Assembly: GCA_041498975.1 (NCBI GenBank)
Contig: JBGQJI010000022.1
Span: 1 to 26,052, forward strand
Source: Candidatus Methylomirabilis sp.
GTDB taxonomy: Bacteria > Methylomirabilota > Methylomirabilia > Methylomirabilales > Methylomirabilaceae
Direction of reading: 5' to 3'
DNA: 26,052 nt
Shown here: piece after piece, positions 3,879-17,689 of the stretch
How positions within the stretch are numbered: the stretch's first letter is position 1
How the letters are laid out: each line of letters starts with the position of its first letter
Notes under the pieces: model-generated
What the model saw: the letters and a program-made list of their open reading frames with translations, nothing else
Databases searched by the model: none
What the model was told of the DNA's origin: nothing
Program-made: the position numbers and the translations under genes

Positions 3879-5876
3879 TCATGCACGGACCACCTGTGTC
3901 GCTGGGCGCAACGGCTCCTCTGCAGCGGCCGGGGCTTCCTTCGGCATCTGGAACGTCAGGAGCCTGGCGGAGCTCAAGACCACGGCCAGTGAGCTGCCCT
4001 GGTGGATCAAGGCGGCGCCCACCGGTTTGATGTAGTGTCTCATCCCGAAGTAGATGGAGATGAACGCGATCGCGAGCGAGAACCAGGTGTTCAGCCTGAT
4101 GACATCCTTGGTCACCCGGGAGAGCTTGATCACATCCACCAGCTTCTTGAAGTCCTGCGAGAGAAGCACGACGTCCGCCACCTCGATCGCCACGGCGTTC
4201 TCCACTGCCGCCATCGCGATCCCGAGGTCGGCCTTCGCGAGGGACGGGGCGTCGTTGATGCCGTCGCCCACCATGGCCACCACGTACCCCTCCTGCTGGA
4301 GCTGCTTGACCCGCTCGACCTTCGCCTCGGGCGACATCTCGGCGTGGACCTGCTGCTCGGCGATCCCGACAGCCCGCGCGATGGTCTTCGCGATCGGGCG
4401 GATATCCCCGGTCATGATCTCGATCCGCCGGATGCCGAGCTTCTCCAGTTCCTGAATCGTCTCTTTCACGTCCGCCTTGATGGTGTCGAAGAAGACGACG
4501 GCTCCCAGCACGCGATCGTCGCGCGCCACCAGCGAGACGGTTTGCCCTTCCGCCCCCTTGGCGGCGATCACCTTTTTGGCGTCCTCCGGGACAGCGATCC
4601 CGTACTCAGCGAGCAGGCGTTCGTTGCCCACCAGGAGCCGCTGTCCCTGAGACTCGGCGGTGACGCCCAACCCGAGCTTGAGCTTGAAGCCGGTCGGGTC
4701 CGGGACCCGCATCCCGCGCCGCTCGGCCTCCCGGCAGATCGCCTTCCCCAGCGGGTGCTCCGAGAACTTCTCGGCGAGGGCAGCAGTAGCAAGGACATCC
4801 TCCTTGTTTTTTCCGCCGAAGGGGATCACCTCCTCGACCCGGTGGACCCCGAAGGTGATCGTGCCGGTTTTGTCCAGGACGATGCAGTCCACCCTTGCAG
4901 CCCGCTCCATGACCGCGCCGCCCTTGATCAGCATCCCCCGCTTGGCAGCGTTCCCCAGGGCCGCCACGAATGCGGTAGGGGTGGCCAGGATGAGGGCGCA
5001 GGGGCACGCCAGCACGAGGACCGTGATGGCCACCTTCACCTCGATGAAGAAGTAGGCCCACAGGGCCAGGAGGAGTGCCGCAGGCATGAGCCACTGGGTG
5101 ATCTCGTCGATGTACCGCGTGACCTCCGCCTTGCTGGCGATCGCCTGCCGCACCAGCCTGACGATCGCCGCGACCATCGTCTGCTCGCCCTTCTTCGTGA
5201 CCTCGACCTCCAGCACCCCGAGCTGGTTGATCGTCCCGGCAAACACCATCTCCCCCGTCCGCTTCACGACCGGCATGAACTCCCCCGTGAGCGGGGCCTG
5301 GTCCACCGAGCTCTCCCCTACCCGGATGATCCCGTCCACGGGGATCTTCTCCCCCGGCTTCACAAGGACCCGCTCACCCACGGCCACAGCCCTCGCCTCG
5401 ACAACGACCTCCCCCTCCGCCCTCCGGACCCGCGCGGTATCCGGGGTGATCGTGACGAGACTCAGGATGGACTTCCGAGAGCGGTCAATGATCAGCTCCT
5501 CGAGGACGATCCCCACCTCGATGATGAGGGTAATGGTGGCGGCCGCGAACCACATCGCCTGGGAGACCGCCGCCGACACCGCGATCGAGACCAGGACCTC
5601 CACGCTCAGGAGCCTGCCCGACTTGATCGCCCGCGCGGCCTGGATAAAGAGAGGGGGAGCCCCGATAAACAGGGCGAATGGCGTCAGGTCGATCTGCTTC
5701 GGGACATCGAACCAGTTCGCGACGAGGATGAGCGCTTGGACGAGGAGGAAGGCGACCATGACGCGCCTGTCCTCCAGGCTGAGCCCCGTTTCGGCGATCC
5801 GATGGGTCTCCCAGCTCTCGTCTTCGATGATCCCTTCGTGGTGGCCGTGGTAATGTTCTTGAGGTGCGTTTGCCAT
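3879..5876 (-). CDS. Heavy-metal translocating P1B-type ATPase
   Basis: Motifs TGE, CPC, DKTGT, SEHPL, TGD and GDGINDAP. His-rich N-terminus (EHYHGHHE), no CxxC HMA domain. Start at ATG 5876 (AAGGGG RBS); GTG 5891 is an alternative. Confidence 0.95.
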   Translation of the reverse strand: MANAPQEHYHGHHEGIIEDESWETHRIAETGLSLEDRRVMVAFLLVQALILVANWFDVPKQIDLTPFALFIGAPPLFIQAARAIKSGRLLSVEVLVSIAVSAAVSQAMWFAAATITLIIEVGIVLEELIIDRSRKSILSLVTITPDTARVRRAEGEVVVEARAVAVGERVLVKPGEKIPVDGIIRVGESSVDQAPLTGEFMPVVKRTGEMVFAGTINQLGVLEVEVTKKGEQTMVAAIVRLVRQAIASKAEVTRYIDEITQWLMPAALLLALWAYFFIEVKVAITVLVLACPCALILATPTAFVAALGNAAKRGMLIKGGAVMERAARVDCIVLDKTGTITFGVHRVEEVIPFGGKNKEDVLATAALAEKFSEHPLGKAICREAERRGMRVPDPTGFKLKLGLGVTAESQGQRLLVGNERLLAEYGIAVPEDAKKVIAAKGAEGQTVSLVARDDRVLGAVVFFDTIKADVKETIQELEKLGIRRIEIMTGDIRPIAKTIARAVGIAEQQVHAEMSPEAKVERVKQLQQEGYVVAMVGDGINDAPSLAKADLGIAMAAVENAVAIEVADVVLLSQDFKKLVDVIKLSRVTKDVIRLNTWFSLAIAFISIYFGMRHYIKPVGAALIHQGSSLAVVLSSARLLTFQMPKEAPAAAEEPLRPATQVVRA

Positions 5877-5896
5877 GATCGTCCCCTTCACTAACT

Positions 5897-6415
5897 CTAG
5901 CTAGACTCGAGCTTCACAAGAGGCCTGACAACAGCGACGACGAGGGAGAACAGCGAGAGATAGTAGATCGCCGAGATAATGATCCCCGGGAAGTGAACGT
6001 CCCAGTAGTAGTCGGCCTGGAGCGGATATTCGGTCAGGGTCGAGCGAAGGTCGTCGAGGGCCTGATTATATTCCACGGCGGTGATCTTTTTCTCGGGGTT
6101 CCCGCTGAGGAACTCCTTCGACAGCATGTCGGCTCGATCCTTTGTGCGCTCGAGCGACTTATTGATGAGGCTCATGTCGTTGGCGGGCGATTTGAAGATC
6201 AGGGCGGCGTAGCCATGAGTAAACCCCCAACGCTTCATGCCATCTACGGCATTGCCGAGGTAGCCCGCCATGTCCTCGGCGTGGGAGGACACCGCCGCCC
6301 TTATCACCCAGTCGTAGGTGTCGTACCAGATCCGGTAGTTAATGTAGTACCACACGCCGTAGTTGAGGGCGAACACGGCAAGGCTGATCCATACCATCTT
6401 CGGGACGCGTCGCAT
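5897..6415 (-). CDS. Hypothetical membrane protein (N- and C-terminal TM helices), paralog of 6524..7120
   Basis: Hydrophobic ends and shared motif DW.IRA..S.HA.D...Y...A..GM..W....GYAALI.KSP.NDM. Confidence 0.85.
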   Translation of the reverse strand: MRRVPKMVWISLAVFALNYGVWYYINYRIWYDTYDWVIRAAVSSHAEDMAGYLGNAVDGMKRWGFTHGYAALIFKSPANDMSLINKSLERTKDRADMLSKEFLSGNPEKKITAVEYNQALDDLRSTLTEYPLQADYYWDVHFPGIIISAIYYLSLFSLVVAVVRPLVKLESS

Positions 6416-6523
6416 CTCTTTTCACCCCTTTGAATTGGTTGCCTTCCTGTTGAACCGCTTCTGTTCAAGTCCACTCCGACCGCCCTCCGCTGACGGTCTC
6501 GGCCGTCGTGAGCCGGCGACAAC

Positions 6524-7120
6524 CTAGCCATACCAAAACGCCTTGAGCAGCCCGATGAAGAACGGGGCGATGAAGGCCAGGTCCACCCACGTGACCTCCT
6601 TCACCAGAGGGCGAATGATTCCGTACCCGAAGAGGATCAGGCCGGCATAGAAGACGACCTCGAACGGCAGCCCGATCCTGATCAGCCAGAGGTAGTGCGC
6701 CGGGGCCTTCAACGGAAGGGTGGAGTACAGAAGCCGGATATCCTTGAGGGTCTGGCCGTACTCGTGGTCGCTCTGACGGAAGGGAGAGCCCGGGGAATCG
6801 TACTTTTCCGCAATCGCCTGAAGACGCTCGTAAGTGCGGTGCATCCCCTTATACATGAGCCCCATGTCGTTGCGCGGGGACTTCCAGATGAGCGCGGCAT
6901 ATCCGGAATTGACTTCCCAATTCTGCATTCCCTGCAGCGCATGCTCGATATACTTCGCAGCGTCGCCCGCGTGCCCGGAGAGCTCCGCCCGGACGATCCA
7001 GTCCGCGGTGTCCCGGTAGAGGTAGTAGTTGGTCATGAACTCGGCGCTCCAGGCCATCAGGGCGATGTTCATCCCCAAGATGCTGATAAACGGAATCTTA
7101 AGCAGATTGACGACTTGCAT
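6524..7120 (-). CDS. Hypothetical membrane protein, paralog of 5897..6415
   Basis: GGAGGGGAG RBS, the same motif, and one extra C-terminal hydrophobic segment. Confidence 0.85.
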   Translation of the reverse strand: MQVVNLLKIPFISILGMNIALMAWSAEFMTNYYLYRDTADWIVRAELSGHAGDAAKYIEHALQGMQNWEVNSGYAALIWKSPRNDMGLMYKGMHRTYERLQAIAEKYDSPGSPFRQSDHEYGQTLKDIRLLYSTLPLKAPAHYLWLIRIGLPFEVVFYAGLILFGYGIIRPLVKEVTWVDLAFIAPFFIGLLKAFWYG

Positions 7121-7196
7121 CTCCCCTCCAAACTTTATGTAAGCGAGACGATTGACGGAGACTGGGCCGGTCGATTCGTCACGAAACGCGGCATTT

Positions 7197-7226
7197 CGTA
7201 TACCAGACTCTCGGAGCGTCTGTCAA
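7197..7226 (-). promoter_or_regulatory. Putative sigma70 promoter of the paralog-paralog-ATPase operon
   Basis: Minus strand TTGACA-18 nt-TATACG with a TG extended -10. Confidence 0.55.
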
Positions 7227-7355
7227 GGGAATTCGGGCTTGTTGGGCTCGTCATTTAAATATTGTAAACCGGCATGGGTCACACCTCTCTAGACACCGCC
7301 GCCAATGGCCGAGTCACTGACCGGGCTGCAGACGTGTGAGCGCTGGAGATTGAGT

Positions 7356-7384
7356 TTGCATTGCGCGGGTGGCGAGTGTATTCT
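7356..7384 (+). promoter_or_regulatory. Putative sigma70 promoter of the ZIP gene
   Basis: TTGCAT-17 nt-TATTCT, about 70 nt upstream of ATG 7454. Confidence 0.45.
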
Positions 7385-7453
7385 CGCAAGGATCTTTCCG
7401 GGTAAGATTGCCATCGCGACTCCCCTAGTGTCTCGACAGGAGCGACACCTCCG

Positions 7454-8182
7454 ATGGAAGCCCTCATTGTTTCCTTCAGCACCTTCATCTCCACCATGCT
7501 GGGTGGCCTCTTTGGCATTCGCCACCGAGATAGGCTGCATTTAATATTGAGTTTCACAGCGGGGGTCTTAATTGCTATCCCGTTCTTCGAGATTATCCCA
7601 GAAATTTTCTCCATCGCGACGGAGCACAAATTTGATGTCACGCCCGGGCTGATTGCGATCGTCATTGGATTCTTCGCCATTCACATCTTAGAACGGTCAG
7701 CGGTCATCCATCATGGGTTTCACGAAACCGAGTACGCGGAGCATAAGCATCCGCTCGTCGGCCTGATCGGGGCGTCGGGGTTGGTCTTCCACAGCTTCCT
7801 CGATGGGGTTGGGATAGGTCTCGCCTTTCACGTGAGCCGCCATGTCGGCTTCCTTGTCGCCGTGGCAGTAATCGCCCACGACTTTTCCGATGGTTTGAAC
7901 ACGGTAAGCTACATGCTGCTCCATAAGAATACACTCGGAAGGGCTCGGATGCTGCTCTTGGCGGATGCCACCACCCCGATCTTCGGGGCGGCCTCAACAT
8001 ATTTTTTCACCATCCCGGATCAGGTACTAGTCTTGTACCTCGGATTCTTCGCAGGCTTTCTGCTGTACATAGGGGCGAGCGATTTGCTGCCTGAGGCCCA
8101 TAGCGAGCACAGTTCATTCGCGATGGTTGGCCTAACCCTGTTGGGCGCTCTGTTCATTTTTGTCGTCACCAGGTTCACCTGA
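7454..8182 (+). CDS. ZIP (ZupT-like) divalent metal transporter
   Basis: About 8 TM segments, TM4/5 signatures HSFLDGVGIG and AHDFSDGLN, a His-rich loop HHGFHETEYAEHKH, and LLPEAH. Confidence 0.92.
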   Translation: MEALIVSFSTFISTMLGGLFGIRHRDRLHLILSFTAGVLIAIPFFEIIPEIFSIATEHKFDVTPGLIAIVIGFFAIHILERSAVIHHGFHETEYAEHKHPLVGLIGASGLVFHSFLDGVGIGLAFHVSRHVGFLVAVAVIAHDFSDGLNTVSYMLLHKNTLGRARMLLLADATTPIFGAASTYFFTIPDQVLVLYLGFFAGFLLYIGASDLLPEAHSEHSSFAMVGLTLLGALFIFVVTRFT

Positions 8183-8329
8183 TCCGGCCAGCAAGCAAAC
8201 ACCCGACATGTCAGGGCGACATCCCTGTTGGGCTCCACGCAAAAATGCTGCTGCTCGGCGCGTGAACCAGATGAGGACACAACCTGCAAGACCGTCGTGA
8301 CTCCAGCTCGCGCTGCAGCCTCGCCTCAC

Positions 8330-8788
8330 TCACCTTCGTTTCGCCGCCTTCATCCTTTTGACCGCCGGTGGCTTCACGGTCAAGACCGGACAGGGGGAGC
8401 GGCGCACCACCCGCTCGGCCACGCTGCCGAGCAACGCATGCGCGAGTCCGGTCCGCCCATGGGTCCCCATGACGATGAGATCGATCCGTTCCTTTTTTGC
8501 GAGCGTGGTGATCTCGATGTCCTCTACACCAACCCTCACCACGGGGTGCAACCTCACCTCGTGCTCTTTACTTGTCTTGAGCTGCTCTCTGAGGCTGGTC
8601 TCGGCATGCTTGACCATGAGGTCGATCAGTTGCCGGACGTTGTATGGACGCATCTCCGGAAAGGAGTGGACGACATGCACGAGATACAGGTCCGCGCCGA
8701 ACTTGCGGGCAATGCCCAATCCGTACTGAAACGCGGATTTGGCATTGTCAGAGAAATCGGTCGGAAACAGAATCCGCCTGATTTGCAC
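8330..8788 (-). CDS. Universal stress protein (UspA family)
   Basis: ILFPTDFS...DLIVMGTHGRTGL...LLGSVAERVVRRSPCPVLTV. GTG start at 8788 follows an AGGAGG RBS. Confidence 0.95.
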   Translation of the reverse strand: MQIRRILFPTDFSDNAKSAFQYGLGIARKFGADLYLVHVVHSFPEMRPYNVRQLIDLMVKHAETSLREQLKTSKEHEVRLHPVVRVGVEDIEITTLAKKERIDLIVMGTHGRTGLAHALLGSVAERVVRRSPCPVLTVKPPAVKRMKAAKRR

Positions 8789-8965
8789 CCGGCCCTCCTG
8801 CCTCCATCGCTCAATCAAGTTCCGCGTCTGACCCTTATGCCCGACCAGTGTGTCTTGGAGGACCTCAATCTACAGGAGCAGACCGACCAGAGAGAAACCC
8901 CAAGACCTGGGGTGCCAGGCTCATGATCACCCTGAGTCAAAGCACCGTTTTTCGCGTGGTCCGTC

Positions 8966-9700
8966 TCATCGCAGATCGTCCCACCGATGACGGGTTAGGT
9001 CCCAGACCTCGATCCTCGTGACCGGATGGATTTCCCACGCGCTCCCCTGCACGTCTCCGACATCCTGGACATGCTCGAAATCATGTAGGAGCCAGCCTGA
9101 GAACCTCACCCTCGTCTGACGATCACAGAGGTCCAAGAACGCACGATAGGACCAGCCGGTCTTTGGGGATTGGAAGGCCCGCGTCACCTCGGTCACGATC
9201 TGCGCTCCACGGTTCTCATCAGGGACACACCGAGGTTGCTGATGTTCCCGCAGATAGGCATTGATGTCGCCCGCGCTCGAAGGACGGACCCCGGCGATGT
9301 ACCCCTCCACGCTCACGGCTCGTTCGGTATAAGCTCGGACCGTGGTCCAATCGGCTTGCCCGTATTCCTCCGGGAGGTCGGGGAGGGCGTAGAACTCCGC
9401 AAACGTCATTGGCGTGTAGCGCTTCGGGATTGCCACCCGGGCCTTCTGGTACCTGAGGTAATAAGTCTGAAAGGGATGCAGGTGGTTACCCTGCCAGCCA
9501 TTCACAAGGCGCACCGCCGCGACCCCGGAGGCCTCGATCAGGCTTGCCGGATCCGCCTCAGTCATCAGTGTCCCAACAGGACTGGTGCGGTTCCCGCCCG
9601 GAGTGAAACAAATCTCGACGGAGCCGGTCCTGGCGCTGGAGATACCAGAGCTGCAGGCGATGACCAAGAACGCGAGCGACATTTCGACCGGGCGGAACAT
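8966..9700 (-). CDS. Hypothetical protein, possible OB-fold, C-terminal WEIHP motif
   Basis: VSVEGYI...GDIN...VTEVT...VRFSGWLLHDFEH...WEIHPVTRIEV. The true start is uncertain. Confidence 0.6.
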   Translation of the reverse strand: MFRPVEMSLAFLVIACSSGISSARTGSVEICFTPGGNRTSPVGTLMTEADPASLIEASGVAAVRLVNGWQGNHLHPFQTYYLRYQKARVAIPKRYTPMTFAEFYALPDLPEEYGQADWTTVRAYTERAVSVEGYIAGVRPSSAGDINAYLREHQQPRCVPDENRGAQIVTEVTRAFQSPKTGWSYRAFLDLCDRQTRVRFSGWLLHDFEHVQDVGDVQGSAWEIHPVTRIEVWDLTRHRWDDLR

Positions 9701-9908
9701 GCGTCAGTGGCTCTTCGGTTCCAGCGATTGAGCTTGGAGCCGCTTGATGCTCGTCCGTGATCGACACACTGCCTCGCCCTGCGAGTGATGGTCAGAGCGG
9801 GGTCGGTCTCCAAGGGTCGGACCCTTTCAGGGCCTCGAGGCCTTCCCATCGTACGCCAACCTCAAACGCTGGAGCGTTACCCATGCTGATGATCCGGACA
9901 CATTCGAC

Positions 9909-11243
9909 TCAAGGAAATAGCCCTACTAACACAATCTCAAGATTAAGGGCGAGCACCGAGAGCAAGATTGCAGCCAAGGTCACAGGTATGCCGATCTTTA
10001 CGTAGAGCGAGTAGGAAATATGCACGCCCCTATCCCTCAGGATTCTGAACCATAGAAGCGCCGCCAGAGACCCGATAGGAAGCATCTTCGGTCCCAGATC
10101 CCCGCCTATGAGCGCCGAGAATACCAACATCTTCCTTACAAATCTCGTCTCCCCCAGCAATGACCCGAAAGACATATCCTTGATACTGAGGGCCATCGCA
10201 TAGGCGGTTGGGTGGTTGTTCATGATAGCCGAGCATGTCGCCGCGATGAACCCGCCGGCCATGGTGAGCTTGAAGATACTGGATCCCGACAGGTAGCCGA
10301 TCAACCCTCCTATCACATTCGTCAAGCCCGCATTCCGTAGTCCTGTCACAACGATGAATATACCGACGACGAAGGCTATGACATCCCAACCGACGGCCTT
10401 GATCACTTGGATGTTATCAGAGCCCTCCATCAACCCTGAGAGAATGAGCAGAGCCATCGCCCCGATGAAGGCCGCAGCCCAGATCGGCACACCGATAAGG
10501 TGTTCCAGGAAAAACGCGAGTAGTGTGAGACCCAGCACTATTCCCGAGAGAACCATGTACCGGCGGTTTTTCAGAGAATCATCGAGAGGAAGGTGCTCAT
10601 ACCTTTGGGGGAGAGCGTTCTTGAAGAACATCCTGAGGCCAACATAGCTGGTTAGCACGCTCACGAGGGCCGGGAATATCATCCACGTCGCGTATTCATG
10701 GAACCCGATGCCAAAGAGACTTGCAACGATGATGTTGATGGGATTGCTGATCACAAATGCCCCAACGAGGTTGGCGATGTAGAGCACAGCAAAGTAGTAA
10801 GGGATTTTGCTAGATAGATCCCAGGATTCTCCCTTGACCTCTTCCACCAGTTTATACACCAGGGGTGTGAAGATCAGGACGGCGGCATCGTTTGTGAAGA
10901 TGGCCCCTGTCACAGTGCCGGCAATGAATATATAGGTAAATAACGCTCTCGCGTCTCCTTTAGCGACCCTTGCGATCTGAAGCGCTAACAGCGCAAAGAG
11001 TCCCGCCTGCTCCGCGATAATGGTCAGAATCATCAGGCTGATTATCGCAATGACCGGATAGAGAAGGACACTCAGGGCTTGGTAGGCAGCATGAACCGGG
11101 ACGGCTCCCGTGATGATACTTAACAGCGCCCCTAGTATTGCAGCAGTGGCATGGCCAATCCTGATCCGCCCGAGCCTTGGCTTTACCAACGCAAGGCCGA
11201 CGGTTAAGACAAGAATAGGCAATGCGGCTTGATTAGCGTGCAT
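9909..11243 (-). CDS. arsB: ArsB-family (ArsB/NhaD ion-transporter superfamily) permease
   Basis: FTNDAAVLIFTP, SNPINII, MNNHPT and GGDLGPKMLPIGSLAALLW match ArsB signatures, with about 12 TM segments. Start moved to ATG 11243 because the longer ORF overlaps the Ubl gene. Substrate not established. Confidence 0.8.
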   Translation of the reverse strand: MHANQAALPILVLTVGLALVKPRLGRIRIGHATAAILGALLSIITGAVPVHAAYQALSVLLYPVIAIISLMILTIIAEQAGLFALLALQIARVAKGDARALFTYIFIAGTVTGAIFTNDAAVLIFTPLVYKLVEEVKGESWDLSSKIPYYFAVLYIANLVGAFVISNPINIIVASLFGIGFHEYATWMIFPALVSVLTSYVGLRMFFKNALPQRYEHLPLDDSLKNRRYMVLSGIVLGLTLLAFFLEHLIGVPIWAAAFIGAMALLILSGLMEGSDNIQVIKAVGWDVIAFVVGIFIVVTGLRNAGLTNVIGGLIGYLSGSSIFKLTMAGGFIAATCSAIMNNHPTAYAMALSIKDMSFGSLLGETRFVRKMLVFSALIGGDLGPKMLPIGSLAALLWFRILRDRGVHISYSLYVKIGIPVTLAAILLSVLALNLEIVLVGLFP

Positions 11244-11310: not shown

Positions 11311-11583
11311 TCAGCCCTTTTCGCCGGCGAGCCGGACAAACTCCAGTTGCTGCCCGGCCAAGAGGATGGTGCTCTCTTCCACTTCGCGGCCATCCACGAT
11401 GGCCACGGCTTGCGGGCTGATATTGAGGGCCTGGCGCAGCGCCTGGCGGACGTCGGCCACCGTCCGGCCGGCGAGGTTCGCCTCCAGGGCATGGACGCCA
11501 TACAGCACGCGCACCTGTTGTTGGGCCTTGGGCTGGCCCGCCAGCTTCGCTCTGGAGATCCCCTTGAGCTGACCCTCGCTCAT
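11311..11583 (-). CDS. Ubiquitin-like (beta-grasp) protein ending LEFVRLAGEKG
   Basis: 90 aa with a beta-grasp-like pattern (TVADVRQAL helix, AIVDG, TILLAGQQLEFV strand) and a C-terminal GxKG. ATGA overlap with the E1 stop. Confidence 0.85.
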   Translation of the reverse strand: MSEGQLKGISRAKLAGQPKAQQQVRVLYGVHALEANLAGRTVADVRQALRQALNISPQAVAIVDGREVEESTILLAGQQLEFVRLAGEKG

Positions 11584-12293
11584 CGATCGTTCTCTCCGCT
11601 GCGCGGATTCCGGGCGACAGGCTGAGCTCGTCCCTCCACGATATCCAGGTACACCTCGCCATAGCCCAATCGCCCGGAGCGCCAGGCGAAGAAGGCGTTC
11701 AGCATCGCCGAGGCGATGCTCAGATTCATGAAGAGGAGTTGAGGCGCGGCGACGGCAGCCAGCTCCTCGCAGGACATCTCCGCCGGAGACTTGTCCTTCG
11801 GGTCGGCGATCTCCGGGTGAAAGCGCGTCAGCGGCAGGGTGACGTCGCGGCCGTCCCGGCGGACGTAGACCTGGACGTTGCCGTCCGTGAAGTCGTTGCC
11901 GCCGGAGATCAGCACCACGTCTGACAGCGCTTCACAGTGGCGACTGACTATCTGCCGGGTGGCGTGGTTGTCCACCGCAAGGAAGACCAGATCGCCGGGT
12001 GTCACCACATGCGGCAAGTTCTCCGCAGTGACGAACTCCGGGATGGCGCGAAACGAGAGATCGGGGAAGCTCCTGGCCAGTTCGGTCGCCTTTACCTTGG
12101 CCTTGTTTCCAACGGTCTCGAAGCTCTGTCGGGCGGCGTTCCTGCTCTCAAACGTATCGCCGTCAACCAGGGTGATCCGGACCTCTTCTCCGGTAAGCTG
12201 CCGCTCTGCCTGGAGGTATCGGGTCAAGAACGGCGCCAAGGCACAGCCGATCCCGCCGACGCCGATCAGTTTGATTTCGATCTTCTCCGCCAT
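11580..12293 (-). CDS. ThiF/E1-like activating enzyme
   Basis: IGVGGIG, VDGDTFESRNAARQ, NKA, DLVFLAVDNHATR, and a candidate catalytic Cys in SCEELA..PQLLFMN. Confidence 0.93.
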   Translation of the reverse strand: MAEKIEIKLIGVGGIGCALAPFLTRYLQAERQLTGEEVRITLVDGDTFESRNAARQSFETVGNKAKVKATELARSFPDLSFRAIPEFVTAENLPHVVTPGDLVFLAVDNHATRQIVSRHCEALSDVVLISGGNDFTDGNVQVYVRRDGRDVTLPLTRFHPEIADPKDKSPAEMSCEELAAVAAPQLLFMNLSIASAMLNAFFAWRSGRLGYGEVYLDIVEGRAQPVARNPRSGENDR

Positions 12294-12308
12294 GGCGCGA
12301 CGACCACC

Positions 12309-12980
12309 TCAGACGGACGACGGCCGCCCTTCGGCATCGCTGTCCCGCGGCACAGCCTCGAGGTCCACGACCTGCAGCGTGTGCTCGCGAACCTCGACCG
12401 CGTGGATGGCCGGCGAGGCGTCGTCGAAGACATCCGACGGCTTGAGGGTGAACCGGCGGCCGTCCACGACGAGGGAACAGGCCACGCTCACCTCCCCATC
12501 GAGGTTGCCGATGGTGACGTGAAGGCCGTCGTCATGCCGCTCATCCTCGTCGTCCAACTCGGAATGGAAGGCATCGGCCGCGGCGTGGCTATGGATCGTG
12601 CCCACCCGGACCCATCCCGTGGGGGTCGGGCCGATTTCGTACCGGCAGTGCCCGCCCGCCACTTGCTGCTTCGGGATCGTCAGTTCGTACCTGTTCTCCG
12701 CCTGGGTGAAGTAGAGAAGGGCCACCGCCTCTGCGCGATGGGCCCGGAAGACCTCCCGGAAGAAGGCCACGATCTCCGCCAGGATGGCGGCTGGGACGGG
12801 CGGAAGCTGCAGCCAGGCGGCTTCCTGCTCGGACATGAGCCAGGTCAGGCCGCGAACCTTCGTCCTGGCATGGAAGAGGAGATTCCGCTTCACCTGGAAC
12901 AAGCCGTCCCGCGTGACCAGATAGTAAATCGGGTCGTCCGGCTCTTCGAATCCATCCTCTTTCAAATAGACGGGAAACAT
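12309..12980 (-). CDS. JAB/MPN+ (Mov34) metallopeptidase
   Basis: Glu in RAEAVALL plus HSHAAADAFHSELD, an exact HxH-x7-S-xx-D JAMM motif. The start MFPVYLK overlaps the upstream stop (TGATG). Confidence 0.9.
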   Translation of the reverse strand: MFPVYLKEDGFEEPDDPIYYLVTRDGLFQVKRNLLFHARTKVRGLTWLMSEQEAAWLQLPPVPAAILAEIVAFFREVFRAHRAEAVALLYFTQAENRYELTIPKQQVAGGHCRYEIGPTPTGWVRVGTIHSHAAADAFHSELDDEDERHDDGLHVTIGNLDGEVSVACSLVVDGRRFTLKPSDVFDDASPAIHAVEVREHTLQVVDLEAVPRDSDAEGRPSSV

Positions 12981-13783
12981 CAGGTCACGTCGTTCAGGCG
13001 ATACAGGAGGTCGGCCAAGTCCGACGCATCCTCCAGGGGGCGTGCGGCGCCTCGCCAGTCGAGCAAGTGCTCGCCGGCCTTGCCAAGGCTGAGCCCTGTC
13101 TCCTCCCACTGAATCGCCAAAGGAAAAAGCGGGTCCGCCGCGGTGGCGATCTCCCAACCGTCGAGCGTCCCGATGCGGTCGTCCAGCGCGGCGGCGCGGC
13201 GGAAGCAGTTGCTTTCGATGTCAAGGTTGAACCCGGCGCTCCAGAAGAACTCGATCGCCGTCTGGGCCTGCCCGGCCACCGTCAGGTCATCGAAGGGGGG
13301 CCGGCCCCGAAGACAGACCCGGCACTTCGCCAAGGGGCTCTCGCTCGCCGAGATGTTCCAGAGGTTGGGCATATAGAGCTCGTCCTCTTCGGAGACCAAC
13401 GGGGCGTTCCGGTAGTAGAGGCGCATCTCCTCAAAAGAGCCGCGGTGAAACAGGAGCAGGTAGACCGCGTAGGGAAAGGCCAGATTGCTGTGGCGATAGC
13501 TGCCGGGCTCGTCCAGGGCCTTCTCGCTCCAGCCGACCCACCGCACCTGGGGGGGATGCTCGACGGCGATGACGAGCGCCGGGCCCCGGACGATGGCCCA
13601 TCGGGCGCCGGGCGGCAGCAAAGGGATCTGTTGAAGGAAGCGCTGGGGAGTCGAGGCGGCGATCTCCAGGAGGAAGTCGCGGAGACTCACCTGCCGATCA
13701 GTGGCAACGGCCCCATCCGGCGTCGATCGGGAAAGGCGGACGGACCTCCCCTTGATCTCGATGGTCTCCTCCGGCTCTGGCAT
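12980..13783 (-). CDS. Prokaryotic E2-like protein (family D / PRTRC protein B-like)
   Basis: LLPP...AFPY.V...LYMPNLWNI...CRVCL...FFWSAGFN resembles the Prok-E2_D pattern (LY..P..N...VC...FF.S.F). It lies in an operon with Ubl, E1 and JAB genes. Confidence 0.72.
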   Translation of the reverse strand: MPEPEETIEIKGRSVRLSRSTPDGAVATDRQVSLRDFLLEIAASTPQRFLQQIPLLPPGARWAIVRGPALVIAVEHPPQVRWVGWSEKALDEPGSYRHSNLAFPYAVYLLLFHRGSFEEMRLYYRNAPLVSEEDELYMPNLWNISASESPLAKCRVCLRGRPPFDDLTVAGQAQTAIEFFWSAGFNLDIESNCFRRAAALDDRIGTLDGWEIATAADPLFPLAIQWEETGLSLGKAGEHLLDWRGAARPLEDASDLADLLYRLNDVT

Positions 13784-13786
13784 GCG

Positions 13787-15562
13787 TTACGACGCTCCGC
13801 CGCCCTCACGGGATGCCCACGCTTCGACGAGAGCCTGCCGCCCCTCAGGCAGGAACTGCCGCGAGGAGCAGAGGGCAAGCGCCGCGCGCTCCTGGGCCTC
13901 GATCGAGAGCCGATCCTGGAATGGGATGAAGTCCTCCACCGCCCAGCGGTAATCCTCGAGGGCGATCGCGTTCGCCCCGCGCCATCGAGCCCGTCGATAG
14001 GCGCGGAGGGTGATCTCCTCGATGTCGGCCCCGGAGATCTGGCCGGGATGGCGCCGATCGCAGTGCTCGACGACCGACGAGAAGTCGCCGACCTCGCAGG
14101 CGAAGCCGTGCTTCCTCGGCATGACCTCGAAGATGCGGGCCTTGTCGGCCGCGTCAGGCATCAGGAGCGGAATCCGCTCGCTGCTCCGACCCGAGCGCTT
14201 TTCCGCCGCGTCCAGGCGATCCGGCCGGTTGCTGATCCGAATCCAGAGGACCTGTCCCTGGATCGCGGGGTCGCCGGTGAAGGCGAAGCGCATCTGTCTG
14301 ATCCGATTGCCCACGCCGGAGTCGCCGCTGTACTCGTCCCGCATCTGCTCGCTCTGGTCCGCCTCGTCCTCCAGCACCACCACCGGGGTCATCGAGCGCA
14401 AGGCCTGCAGGATGCGCCAGTAGTTCCGCTCCGATTGTCCGACCCACTTCTCCCGGGGATTGACGATCTTCACGAAATTGAAGCCGCACTCCTTGGCCAG
14501 GGCCTCCGCCAGGGCCGTCTTCCCTACGCCGGGCGGGCCCAGCAAAGTGATGCCTCGTGGCACCAGCTTATGGTCGCCGTCTTTGATGGCCTGGATGACG
14601 CGGCGCAGGTACGTCTTCACCGCCTCCATTCCGCCGATGGCATCCAAGCCCAGGGTGGGCTCCACCGCCTCGATCATGCCGTGCAGCTCCCGTTTGAGGA
14701 TCTCTCGCTTCCGGTCGGTGACCTCCGCATAGGTCAGCGGCACCTTGCGCCCGCCCACCTGACGGCACAGCGCCTTCAGGTGCAAGCGCGAGAGGCCGGC
14801 GGTGACATGGGCGAGCTGCTCGGGAGTCATCGTCATGGTGAACCCGTTCTCCGCCCGGAGGTGGTCGATATACTCAGCCCGCTCGGCCACGCTGGGGAGA
14901 GGCACCTCGATGGCCTCCACCCGCGAGGCCGGACCCCGGAGCTGCGCGTGCAGGTCGGCGAGGTTGCCGACGGTGAGGACGACGGCCACGCCGGAGCGCA
15001 ACATCTCGGGGTCCGCCGCCCAGCGGAGGAGGGTCACCAGATTGGTCCGATCGTCATCGCTCATCGACGACAGATCGGCATCGGGAACGATCGTCTCGGC
15101 GTAGCCGATCACAACCAGCGGCGCACATCCCTCCCTGACGCCGAAGCAACCGGATCGGACCGCTGTCTCGAGGAGCGCAAGGACCTTCGTCGGGTGAGTC
15201 GGCAGCTCGCGTTCCGGCGGGACGTCTTGGCCCAGCGCGGTAAGAGCCCGACGCTTTGCCGCCTCGGCCTCATTGGTGAGGCCGGTGACCTTCCGAAAGA
15301 GCGCCTCTGTGGCGGAATCGGAAAAACGCAGGCCGCGCGAGCGATCGTACACGATCATCCGCTCATCGCCTGCGAGCCAGCGTCCCAGAAAGGTCGGCAG
15401 CGAGACGAACTGATCGCCCAGGCGAACCTCGTCGGCAACGTTGAAGTGCAGAACGAAGACGGAGGTCATCCTGGCGTCGATCCGCTCTTTCAGATCGCGC
15501 GCCCAGCGCGGCAGTGCTAGTTGGCCTGTGACCTGCGGCTGATGTCGATATTCCTCTGCCAT
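13787..15562 (-). CDS. AAA+ ATPase with degenerate N-terminal and intact C-terminal AAA module
   Basis: DAIGGM, Walker A GPPGVGKT, pore loop KWVG, Walker B VVVLEDEAD, SRH SNRPDRLDAAEKRSGR. The N-terminal half has AAA-like strands (FVLHFNVAD, LVVIGYAET, IEVPLPS..ER) but no Walker A. Confidence 0.93.
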   Translation of the reverse strand: MAEEYRHQPQVTGQLALPRWARDLKERIDARMTSVFVLHFNVADEVRLGDQFVSLPTFLGRWLAGDERMIVYDRSRGLRFSDSATEALFRKVTGLTNEAEAAKRRALTALGQDVPPERELPTHPTKVLALLETAVRSGCFGVREGCAPLVVIGYAETIVPDADLSSMSDDDRTNLVTLLRWAADPEMLRSGVAVVLTVGNLADLHAQLRGPASRVEAIEVPLPSVAERAEYIDHLRAENGFTMTMTPEQLAHVTAGLSRLHLKALCRQVGGRKVPLTYAEVTDRKREILKRELHGMIEAVEPTLGLDAIGGMEAVKTYLRRVIQAIKDGDHKLVPRGITLLGPPGVGKTALAEALAKECGFNFVKIVNPREKWVGQSERNYWRILQALRSMTPVVVLEDEADQSEQMRDEYSGDSGVGNRIRQMRFAFTGDPAIQGQVLWIRISNRPDRLDAAEKRSGRSSERIPLLMPDAADKARIFEVMPRKHGFACEVGDFSSVVEHCDRRHPGQISGADIEEITLRAYRRARWRGANAIALEDYRWAVEDFIPFQDRLSIEAQERAALALCSSRQFLPEGRQALVEAWASREGGGAS

Positions 15563-15874: not shown

Positions 15875-16114
15875 ATGCCGACTGCCGAGGAGCTCAAAGA
15901 CGAGGACAGGCGCCTGAGACAGCTCCAGTTCGTGGTTGGTCTGACGATGAGCGTGATCAGCCAGACCAAGCTCTCGCTGGAAGAGGCGTCTCGGATGGTG
16001 GCAGCCACGAGGCAATGGGCGCTAAGGCTCTTTCCCGGGAAGGAGCTGGCCTTCGATCTGATCTATCAGCCCCGCTTCCGCAGGCTCCTCACCGAACGAT
16101 TCCACCTCCATTGA
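15875..16114 (+). CDS. Small hypothetical protein (79 aa, helical)
   Basis: GGAGAAG upstream, protein-like composition (LFPGKELAFDLIYQPRFRRLL), co-oriented with nfo. Confidence 0.75.
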   Translation: MPTAEELKDEDRRLRQLQFVVGLTMSVISQTKLSLEEASRMVAATRQWALRLFPGKELAFDLIYQPRFRRLLTERFHLH

Positions 16115-16176
16115 GATCAGTGCCCACTCCTACGAACAGACCGATCAAGGCCCAGCAACAGCCACCCTCAGTAGAA

Positions 16177-17046
16177 GTGGACTTGCTTCTTGGCGCCCAC
16201 ATGTCGATCGCAGGAGGAGTTGATCTGGCGGCGCTGAGAGGCCAGAATGTCGGCTGTCGAGCCATCCAGCTCTTCACCAAGAGCAGCAATCAGTGGCGGG
16301 CCAGGCCGCTGCCGCCCGAGGAGATCGAGCGCTATCGAGCTAACCTTCAGGCTGCCGGAATCGCCCATACTGTGGCCCACGATTCGTACCTGATCAATCT
16401 CGCCTCGACTGACCCTCCGGTATATCAGAGGTCGATGGCAGGCTTCCAGGAGGAGCTGGAGCGGGCGGAAGCGCTGGGCATTCCCTATCTGGTGACCCAT
16501 CCCGGGGCCCACATGGGGGCCGGCGAGGAGACAGGGTTACGTCAGGTGGCGAATAGCATCCGGGACCTTTTGAAGCGGACGAAAGGCTACCGCGCGCAGG
16601 TGGTTCTCGAGACCACCGCCGGCCAGGGGACCAGCTTGGGCCACCGCTTCGAGCAGATTACGGCCATCCTGGATCAAATCGGCCTCCCGGAGCGGACCGG
16701 GGTCTGCCTGGACACCTGCCACCTCTTCGCCGCCGGCTACGATATCAGGACACCCCAGGGATACGCCGACGTCCTTGGGGCATTCGACCGGATCGTGGGG
16801 ATCTCCCACCTGAAGGTCATACACCTCAACGACAGCAAAAAAGGGCTAGGGTCTCACGTGGACCGCCACGAACATATCGGCAAGGGGGCGATCGGCCTCG
16901 AGGCCTTCCGCTGCCTCGTGACCGACCCCCGTCTGCGGGGACTGCCGATGATCCTCGAGACCCCGAAAGATGGCGACTTCGTGCTGGCCGATCGCCGCAA
17001 TCTCGACACCCTGCTACGCCTGGTCCAAGAGGCGCATGCCGCCTGA
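16177..17046 (+). CDS. nfo: Endonuclease IV (AP endonuclease family 2)
   Basis: GAHMSIAGG, HDSYLINL, HPG, ETTAGQG, CLDTCH, HLNDSK, DRHEHIG and ETP. Start approximate (GTG 16177 or TTG 16183). Confidence 0.96.
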   Translation: MDLLLGAHMSIAGGVDLAALRGQNVGCRAIQLFTKSSNQWRARPLPPEEIERYRANLQAAGIAHTVAHDSYLINLASTDPPVYQRSMAGFQEELERAEALGIPYLVTHPGAHMGAGEETGLRQVANSIRDLLKRTKGYRAQVVLETTAGQGTSLGHRFEQITAILDQIGLPERTGVCLDTCHLFAAGYDIRTPQGYADVLGAFDRIVGISHLKVIHLNDSKKGLGSHVDRHEHIGKGAIGLEAFRCLVTDPRLRGLPMILETPKDGDFVLADRRNLDTLLRLVQEAHAA

Positions 17047-17689
17047 CGTCTCCGGGTTTGAGTTCGTCGACCAATCTCAGCCGCCGAGCGACCTTCCCAT
17101 CTTCCCGCTCCCGAATGTGGTCCTCTTCCCGAACATGGTCCTGCCACTCCACATCTTCGAGGAACGGTACAAGCGGATGATCCATGACTGTCTGCAGGCC
17201 GACCGGTACCTCGGGATCTTCCTGCTCAGAAAGGGATGGGAACAGGCCAACGACCCGCAGCCCTACGACGTTGGCGGGTTTGGTCAGATCACCCGCGCCG
17301 TCAAACTGCCGACCGGCAACTATGAAATCGTGGTTCGAGGCCTCGGAAGAGCTCGGGCCATCTCGTATACGCAGGAAATTCCATACAGGCGCGCGGTGGT
17401 TGAGCTTATTGAAAACGGGGGAGAAGATTCAGCGGAACTGCGAGCCCTAGCCGCTTCCATGGTGGAGCGGCTGAACAGGGTCCTGACTCTCCGGCCGGGC
17501 CTTGGCACAGAATTCCAGACCCACCTCAAACTGCTCGCCAGCCCGAGGGACCTCGGCTACGCGGTGGCCGCTCACTACCCGGACCTGACGGTCTATGATC
17601 GACAATCGATTCTGGAACTCAGAAGCGTCGAGGCGCAACTCCGTCAACTCAACCGCTTCCTGAACCGGGACCTCGCCCGGCTGAACTAA
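17036..17689 (+). CDS. Stand-alone Lon N-terminal (substrate-binding) domain protein
   Basis: LPIFPLPNVVLFPNMVLPLHIFEERYKRMI...PYRRA...RQSILE. No AAA or protease domain. The ATG overlaps the end of nfo. Confidence 0.9.
   Translation: MPPDVSGFEFVDQSQPPSDLPIFPLPNVVLFPNMVLPLHIFEERYKRMIHDCLQADRYLGIFLLRKGWEQANDPQPYDVGGFGQITRAVKLPTGNYEIVVRGLGRARAISYTQEIPYRRAVVELIENGGEDSAELRALAASMVERLNRVLTLRPGLGTEFQTHLKLLASPRDLGYAVAAHYPDLTVYDRQSILELRSVEAQLRQLNRFLNRDLARLN

Follow-up and report, generated by a model that had tools for sequence, protein, structure and literature searches.

Sets of bacterial genes that combine a ubiquitin-like protein (Ubl) with an activating enzyme (E1), a conjugating enzyme (E2) and a JAB/JAMM peptidase (JAB) are known in several arrangements. 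The class 6d operons described by Iyer, Burroughs and Aravind (2006) consist of a Ubl, a JAB, an E1, an E2 and a helical protein; an ATPase is not among the components given in the available text, in which the string 'aaa' occurs 0 times (PMC1779556). We infer that the PRTRC cassette (TIGR03734-03742) and the class 6d operons are the same thing. The BilABCD operons of types I and II begin with the Ubl gene, in the order bilA-B-C-D, with CapH/CapP beside type II (PMC10557695, PMC11601603), while Bub (6E) systems carry Ubl-E2 and JAB-E1 or E2-E1 fusions together with DUF6527; in the available parts of these accounts neither Bil nor Bub includes an ATPase. Ubl systems with RING E3 and FtsH-like or Pup components are reported in the accessible part of PMC7159879, and the pairing of a Ubl set with an adjacent AAA+ ATPase is therefore, as an idea, not new. 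Here we analyse a stretch of 26,052 nucleotides from Candidatus Methylomirabilis sp. (contig JBGQJI010000022.1; the window), in which the four tagging genes follow an AAA+ ATPase gene in one operon. Homologs of its genes bear the names Ca. Methylomirabilis or NC10, and we take the host for a member of Methylomirabilales (NC10). We place the probability that this operon encodes a constitutive chromosomal ubiquitin-like tag-and-unfold system at about 55%. No published account of the operon was found in a search that for the most part did not extend to subscription papers, Burroughs et al. 2011 or supplements.

The operon comprises five intact co-directional genes on the minus strand, without internal stops, preceded by a promoter candidate:

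13787..15562, minus strand, AAA+ ATPase, 591 amino acids
12980..13783, minus strand, E2-like protein, 267 amino acids
12309..12980, minus strand, JAB/JAMM peptidase, 223 amino acids
11580..12293, minus strand, E1/ThiF-like adenylyltransferase, 237 amino acids
11311..11583, minus strand, Ubl, 90 amino acids
15614..15643, minus strand, sigma-70-type promoter candidate TTGACT-18-TAGGAT (motif scan: 2 sites against 0.3 expected in shuffles)

A preliminary description of the locus, made from its letters alone, had named the tagging genes in the reverse of their transcription order, which runs ATPase, E2-like protein, JAB, E1, Ubl. Its five co-directional genes were recovered with all reading frames intact, as were its tight junctions (in order, a 3-nucleotide gap, TGATG, a 15-nucleotide gap and ATGA), and the promoter it had proposed was located at 15643-15614. 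A TTGACA box with a -10 box lies within about 200 nucleotides upstream of the ATPase gene in 11 of 20 NC10 relatives; the other nine, including the four closest, do not show this combination there. The five products appear from their sequences to be small and soluble. The JAB start at 12980 agrees with the starts of its homologs, on which ground a longer frame from a TTG at 13157 was rejected.

Judged by its sequence, the operon is a variant of the class 6d/PRTRC kind and a member of neither PRTRC, Bil nor Bub. It shares with PRTRC and class 6d a stand-alone Ubl ending in KG, a JAB with an N-terminal extension, a ThiF-like E1, a family-D E2 and the order E2-JAB-E1, which a Methylomonas plasmid also has. 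The best NCBIfam matches of JAB and E1 are PRTRC models, yet both fall below cut-off: JAB scores 38.2 bits with TIGR03735 (cut-off 101.8; a PRTRC plasmid control reaches 135.9), and E1 scores 71 bits with TIGR03736, PRTRC ThiF (cut-off 144.75). The PRTRC NCBIfam models match neither the E2 nor the Ubl of the operon. Unlike PRTRC and class 6d operons, this one is led by an AAA+ ATPase, lacks ParB and alpha-helical genes, has a ThiS/TGS-like Ubl in place of Prok_Ub and an E2 with Asn for the class 6d His, and is chromosomal and vertically inherited; in a quick tree a long branch with support 99 sets its E1 apart from the plasmid ThiFs. With Bil and Bub, as far as the available parts of their descriptions go, it has in common separate Ubl, E2, JAB and E1 components, a precursor tail trimmed, here putatively, by JAB, and no E3. 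It differs from Bil in gene order and in matching the PADLOC BilD model only at E 0.015 and BilA-C not at all, and from Bub in its five separate genes and the lack of a DUF6527 match. PADLOC returned weak generic matches only and no fitting system. The RING E3, Ubl-E2 fusion, vWA-MoxR and caspase effectors of the systems in the accessible part of PMC7159879 have no counterpart in the operon.

The conserved positions of JAB, E1 and Ubl were counted over alignment rows that include near-duplicate loci. JAB matches PF14464 at 25.4 bits, just over the cut-off of 25, and retains Glu84 in 142 of 143 rows and the metal ligands His130, His132, Ser140 and Asp143 in all 143. Its N-terminal extension is present (the TIGR03735 match begins at residue 20), with no Arg or Trp among the columns conserved there in at least 93% of rows. 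E1 matches PF00899, with the motif GxGGxG, and keeps Arg55 in 158/158 rows and Cys175 in 160/160; it has neither CxxC pairs nor a rhodanese domain, and its best PDB matches are MoeB/ThiF/Uba4. Together with the invariant end of the Ubl, these alignments bear out the earlier impression that the catalytic motifs are intact.

The E2-like protein is more divergent. The 267-residue sequence itself has no Pfam, NCBIfam or PADLOC match, and PF14460 (Prok-E2_D) matches none of 56 close relatives. A profile search returned 1,992 clusters, of which 150 were listed and 130 scanned for family matches; among these 130 are many weak Prok-E2_D matches, several of them above cut-off. In alignments of the family profile, Cys157 falls on the Cys of two annotated proteins, one an E2 family D protein (E 5e-16) and the other a PRTRC B (E 4e-4). 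Of 152 aligned rows, 135 retain Cys157 and only 38 Cys154. The predicted model has a mean confidence (predicted local distance difference test, pLDDT) of 88.6; a Foldseek search of PDB with it gave no match, and in a wide structural search with VIA-align E2 enzymes fill the top rows (best Z 5.2, root-mean-square deviation 3.5, 109 residues). We accept the protein as a divergent relative of Prok-E2_D, with Cys157 as the putative catalytic residue. The complete Ubl-E1-E2-JAB set with a family-D E2, proposed in the preliminary description, thus stands by way of the PF14460 matches of relatives and the alignment of Cys157. The likeness to PRTRC that it saw in E1 and E2 holds for the best match of E1 and for the alignment of the E2 family to PRTRC B, and fails at the cut-off for E1 and for the E2 taken by itself.

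The Ubl consists of an N-terminal extension of about 22 residues and a predicted ThiS/TGS-like beta-grasp that ends in AGEKG, with Lys89-Gly90 invariant in 108/108 rows. By itself it matches no family; among 27 members of its family TGS is matched by 14, ThiS by 11 and Ub-Mut7C by 7. Prok_Ub (PF14454) is matched by none of the 27, although a genuine PRTRC C control does match it, and the earlier comparison of the Ubl with PRTRC protein C must be given up; the Ubl profile likewise finds neither PRTRC C nor a significant PDB sequence. Past the Gly, 17 of 22 complete NC10 Ubls (one truncated copy excluded, one tail at a contig end) carry mutually unrelated tails of 1-39 residues, as do five of five deltaproteobacterial Ubls. 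Bil Ubls carry precursor tails trimmed by their own JAB, according to the available part of PMC10557695, and by this likeness the window Ubl would be a mature form and most of its relatives tailed precursors. In cellular Ubls the N-terminal extension is short and mostly carries an L[KR]Q-like motif; in viral ones a Rho_N-like domain takes its place.

The ATPase matches PF00004 (E 1.4e-20) over a single AAA stretch at residues 339-464. In the alignment its C-terminal domain has Walker A and B motifs (GPPGVGKT, LEDEAD), a pore loop KWVG with Trp373 and an RSGR finger, and the pore loops are invariant; by these features the intact domain is of the classic clade. VAT and p97 are its best solved relatives, aligned from about profile position 273 on, that is, over the second domain. 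The protein resembles Cdc48/p97/VAT with ubiquitin or SAMP, and the Pup-Mpa-20S pathway, in its classic-clade pore-loop domain and proposed tag-then-unfold logic, and differs from Cdc48/p97 orthologs in having only one intact AAA domain, no N-domain match and a TIGR01243 score of 94.5 bits against a cut-off of 802.65. The earlier label Cdc48-like therefore fits the second AAA domain and not the first, which has no Walker A. Over its full length the protein is akin to a DUF1257-linked ATPase, a family which we take to be Ycf46-like from source labels; among the viral matches listed, one full-length relative adjoins a DUF1257 gene and has no cassette genes. The matches listed from a metagenome scan with the ATPase alignment are generic Walker A ones and are uninformative. 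The C-terminus is variable and has no HbYX-like ending. ATPase genes with several frameshifts, due to sequencing error or decay, lie beside an intact E2 in L245-L249 (G207, G209, G210).

The ATPase and the tagging genes occur together. Across 41 Methylomirabilales genomes, 24 have both ATPase and E1, 15 have neither and 2, both incomplete, have one only, an agreement of 39/41; as a control, Pup ligase is present in 14 of the 15 genomes negative for both. Four further genomes negative for E1 are also without ATPase and E2, and in the whole phylum E1 occurs in 29 of 201 genomes, every one of them in Methylomirabilales (the tallies over the 41 genomes and the phylum, and those of X and the hydrolase below, take in the unpublished genome G027, and the phylum-wide one also G157; no conclusion depends on these genomes by themselves). 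Among 20 loci read, the five-gene set is complete in 12; the E2 is absent from 5 and the Ubl from 2, and 1 is truncated. Of 32 NC10 loci from a GTDB scan, which may overlap the genomes of the other tallies, 27 carry the ATPase gene upstream and 5 end at a contig edge. The ATPase is 57-90% identical across the order, the operon is single-copy, and its E2s cluster by host family.

In another group, made up of 40 loci whose titles mostly name Desulfobaccales or deltaproteobacteria, no ATPase gene lies closer than 8 kb to E1. The five deltaproteobacterial genomes tested nevertheless hold an ATPase-E2 pair and a Ubl elsewhere, far from JAB-E1, and in the family of G206 (61 genomes, completeness not given) the unlinked ATPase and E1 are both present in 35, both absent in 24 and found singly in 2, an agreement of 59/61. 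In a quick E1 tree whose root is not established, the deltaproteobacterial E1s fall together as a single clade nested among those of NC10, and the set may have been acquired in one transfer and jointly retained. Retention of ATPase and E1 after the break-up of the operon favours a function over hitch-hiking. The link of the AAA gene to the cassette, put forward in the preliminary description, is thus found across genomes in both groups, and appears from these patterns to be conserved and functional.

The nearest sequence relatives of the cassette are E2D-JAB-E1-Ubl cassettes of uncultured large phages in IMG/VR, with 35-51% identity in E1, the same gene order and a Ubl ending in GxKG; the literature search found no published description of them. 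They differ from the operon, in the loci read, by an E2 of 830-880 residues, a Rho_N-like extension on the Ubl and a second ThiF that follows. All four tagging genes are present in 67 of 80 viral loci (66 distinct E1 sequences). The query P0002 alone had no match in viral contigs or GenBank phages, and P0001 none in GenBank phages. In several viral loci (L147:3699-14272, L143, L149, L199) the long E2, JAB, E1, Rho_N-Ubl and second ThiF are succeeded by a look-alike of the RNA polymerase large subunit; L199 and L203 have two Ubl copies, and many viral Ubls end in KG-C.

Five other loci are arranged Ubl-E2-JAB-E1, and each of the three ATPases examined upstream of them is of the proteasomal type; by sequence, these loci are a sister clade of the cassette behind a different ATPase. 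Ubl-E2 fusions occur in such proteasomal-ATPase-led operons (L135:6134-7255, L137:6128-7258), and L139 has a ubiquitin-family Ubl upstream as well. At L134:4660-9075 an E2 of 781 residues with predicted membrane segments, a JAB, an E1 and an acidic Ubl lie just upstream of ribosomal-protein genes.

The system has a second locus, overlooked in the preliminary description. It lies at G000:C80 (2263-7305, L041) and carries a paralog (42%) of the operon E2, in the order alpha/beta hydrolase, E2', X (112 residues), Y (459 residues), a small DUF4177-like gene, TPR and HEPN. X occurs in 19 of 26 cassette-positive genomes, in none of 15 cassette-negative ones and in none of 4 further negatives, and the alpha/beta hydrolase in 20/26 and 0/15. 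X has an invariant His and an invariant C-terminal Cys. In G024 (L058:528-1196) and G032 (L059:1465-2097) the operon is without its Ubl, which sits upstream of X instead, fused to it in frame by a linker of 15 residues past the Gly. X retains its own Met in these fusions, which may accordingly be a tolerated read-through of a disposable tail. X belongs to no known family; Foldseek found no match for it in PDB, its VIA-align matches were all of a generic beta-sheet kind, with Z no higher than 5.2, and the ESM Atlas had no usable match for X or Y. The helical protein Y does not match the helical proteins of PRTRC plasmids and was rejected as a fixed part of the system, since 3 of 4 cassette-negative genomes also have it. 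In NC10 a further route to targets is probably provided by the second E2 together with X. In G069 (C14:6341-8371) two E2 copies adjoin X, and at L044:5848-6045 a fragment of an E2 C-terminus stands next to the second-locus E2.

To judge from the alignments, no component or catalytic residue of a conjugation set is missing, and a course of action can be proposed by analogy with Bil-type chemistry. JAB would trim the Ubl to Gly90, a step needed in most relatives and dispensable for the window copy; E1 would adenylate the Ubl and hold it on Cys175, from where it would pass to Cys157 of the E2 and then, with no RING E3 involved, to a lysine of the target. Gene linkage suggests that a hexamer of the ATPase would take up tagged proteins and thread them through its second ring, perhaps with the N-terminal extension of the Ubl as a grip or handle, and that JAB would recycle the tag. 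Tagged proteins might in the end be remodelled or passed to a protease; no docking motif is conserved at the C-terminus of the ATPase, and remodelling is as likely as degradation, despite the 20S and Pup-ligase genes of the genome (at G000:C223 20S proteasome subunits lie between Pup-ligase-family genes, with a distribution wider than that of the operon). A housekeeping role is preferred over defence because of the single copy, the E2 tree that follows host families and the plain sigma-70 box in 11 of 20 relatives.

Several observations weigh against this tag-and-unfold reading. The system is dispensable, being absent from 13 of 19 genus-mates, one of them complete, which tempers the preference for housekeeping. 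The genomes are kin, so that few independent events lie behind the co-occurrence counts. Five of the 20 loci read have no E2 in the operon, and X was not found in the five deltaproteobacterial genomes. Where class 6d has a conserved His C-terminal to the Cys, the E2-like protein has Asn186 (Asn in 117 of 152 rows), and the VIA-align Z of about 5 is below the level that the tool calls reliable, giving the ubiquitin-conjugating fold weak support. The N-terminal AAA domain of the ATPase is degenerate, without a Walker A in the alignment, and a family scan found no Cdc48 N-domain match. None of the 80 viral loci shows an ATPase within up to 8 kb, and since the full set of four tagging genes is present in 67 of them, tagging functions with no motor linked to it.

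A more specific proposal, which we advance only tentatively, is that the operon is a counterpart of p97-ubiquitin, independently built from a phage-type cassette and a Ycf46-type ATPase, serving housekeeping through two E2s at two loci; the motor would recognise the Ubl, and the natural Ubl::X fusions would expose X as its first substrate or adaptor. Were the tag-and-unfold reading correct, ubiquitin-type tagging for extraction or unfolding would exist in bacteria too, beside Pup, in contrast to the characterised bacterial E1-E2 pathways (CBASS Cap2, Bil, Bub), which are immune or stress modules without an unfolding motor. The Prok-E2_D family, whose prediction dates from 2006, would at the same time acquire a function, the first as far as the literature search goes.

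The same conjugation chemistry might serve antiphage defence or stress conflict in the manner of Bil, with the Ubl placed on phage proteins and the ATPase dismantling the tagged structures. We regard this as unlikely, even though the nearest relatives are phage cassettes, the distribution is patchy, and all characterised bacterial E1-E2 pathways named in the available part of PMC11601603 act in immunity or stress. A single-copy gene set whose tree follows host families, whose ATPase is well conserved across the order, whose nfo neighbourhood is conserved in the genus and whose promoter candidate is a plain sigma-70 box speaks against such a role, and neither ParB nor an integrase, another mobile gene or a regulator was found among the window proteins scanned. 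The preliminary description had left defence and proteostasis side by side, having itself seen no ParB or mobile gene; with vertical inheritance and no fitting PADLOC system, defence has become the less likely of the two.

The ATPase might also serve the tagging machinery, disassembling the E2 or E1-E2 or E2-target complexes, and not act on tagged substrates. Its tightest link is indeed with the E2, the two being adjacent in NC10 and in all five deltaproteobacterial genomes whose JAB-E1 and Ubl lie elsewhere; five of the 20 operons, however, keep ATPase-JAB-E1-Ubl and lack the E2, and the proteasomal-type ATPase in the same slot of the sister clade fits substrate threading, which makes this account rather improbable.

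In CysO/Mec and siderophore operons the Ubl is trimmed by a JAB and thiocarboxylated, and tailed carriers occur with a JAB in sulfur pathways. A sulfur-carrier pathway of this kind, in which JAB trims, E1 adenylates and the Ubl is thiocarboxylated, would suit the ThiS-like Ubl, its tails, the MoeB/ThiF/Uba4 kinship of E1 and the invariant terminal Cys of X, but is very improbable for a set that includes an E2-type protein with a conserved Cys and an E1 without CxxC pairs or rhodanese, that has no sulfur-metabolism gene in its operon and is kept by large phages, in a genome with a separate ThiF/MoeB-like gene at G000:C87.

Short contigs from a soil RNA run (share 0.10), mostly less than 95% alike, cover parts of all five genes; they cannot show transcription or co-transcription of the operon. 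A plus-strand open reading frame of 817 codons at 13067-15520 is taken as the antisense shadow of two conserved minus-strand genes. GC content is 63-68% in the operon against 53-66% in its surroundings, with no island signature. By their sequences, the flanking genes serve housekeeping and metal transport. One flank holds nfo, a Lon N-domain gene, ftsEX, ctpA and tsaD; the opposite one has arsB, zupT and a heavy-metal ATPase. The metal-resistance cluster (arsB, zupT, heavy-metal P-type ATPase) occupies 3879-11243; arsB begins about 70 nucleotides past the Ubl stop, at a lower GC content and with no terminator found between, and was rejected as a member of the operon, since no other fetched locus has it. 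Several genomes (L035, L037-L040) have, at the Ubl end of the operon, a convergent gene for a second AAA ATPase that is unrelated to the first. At the promoter end, 15875-17689 holds a divergent gene of 79 codons that belongs to no family, nfo and the Lon N-domain gene, and the 79-codon gene and nfo flank the operon in three loci of the same genus.

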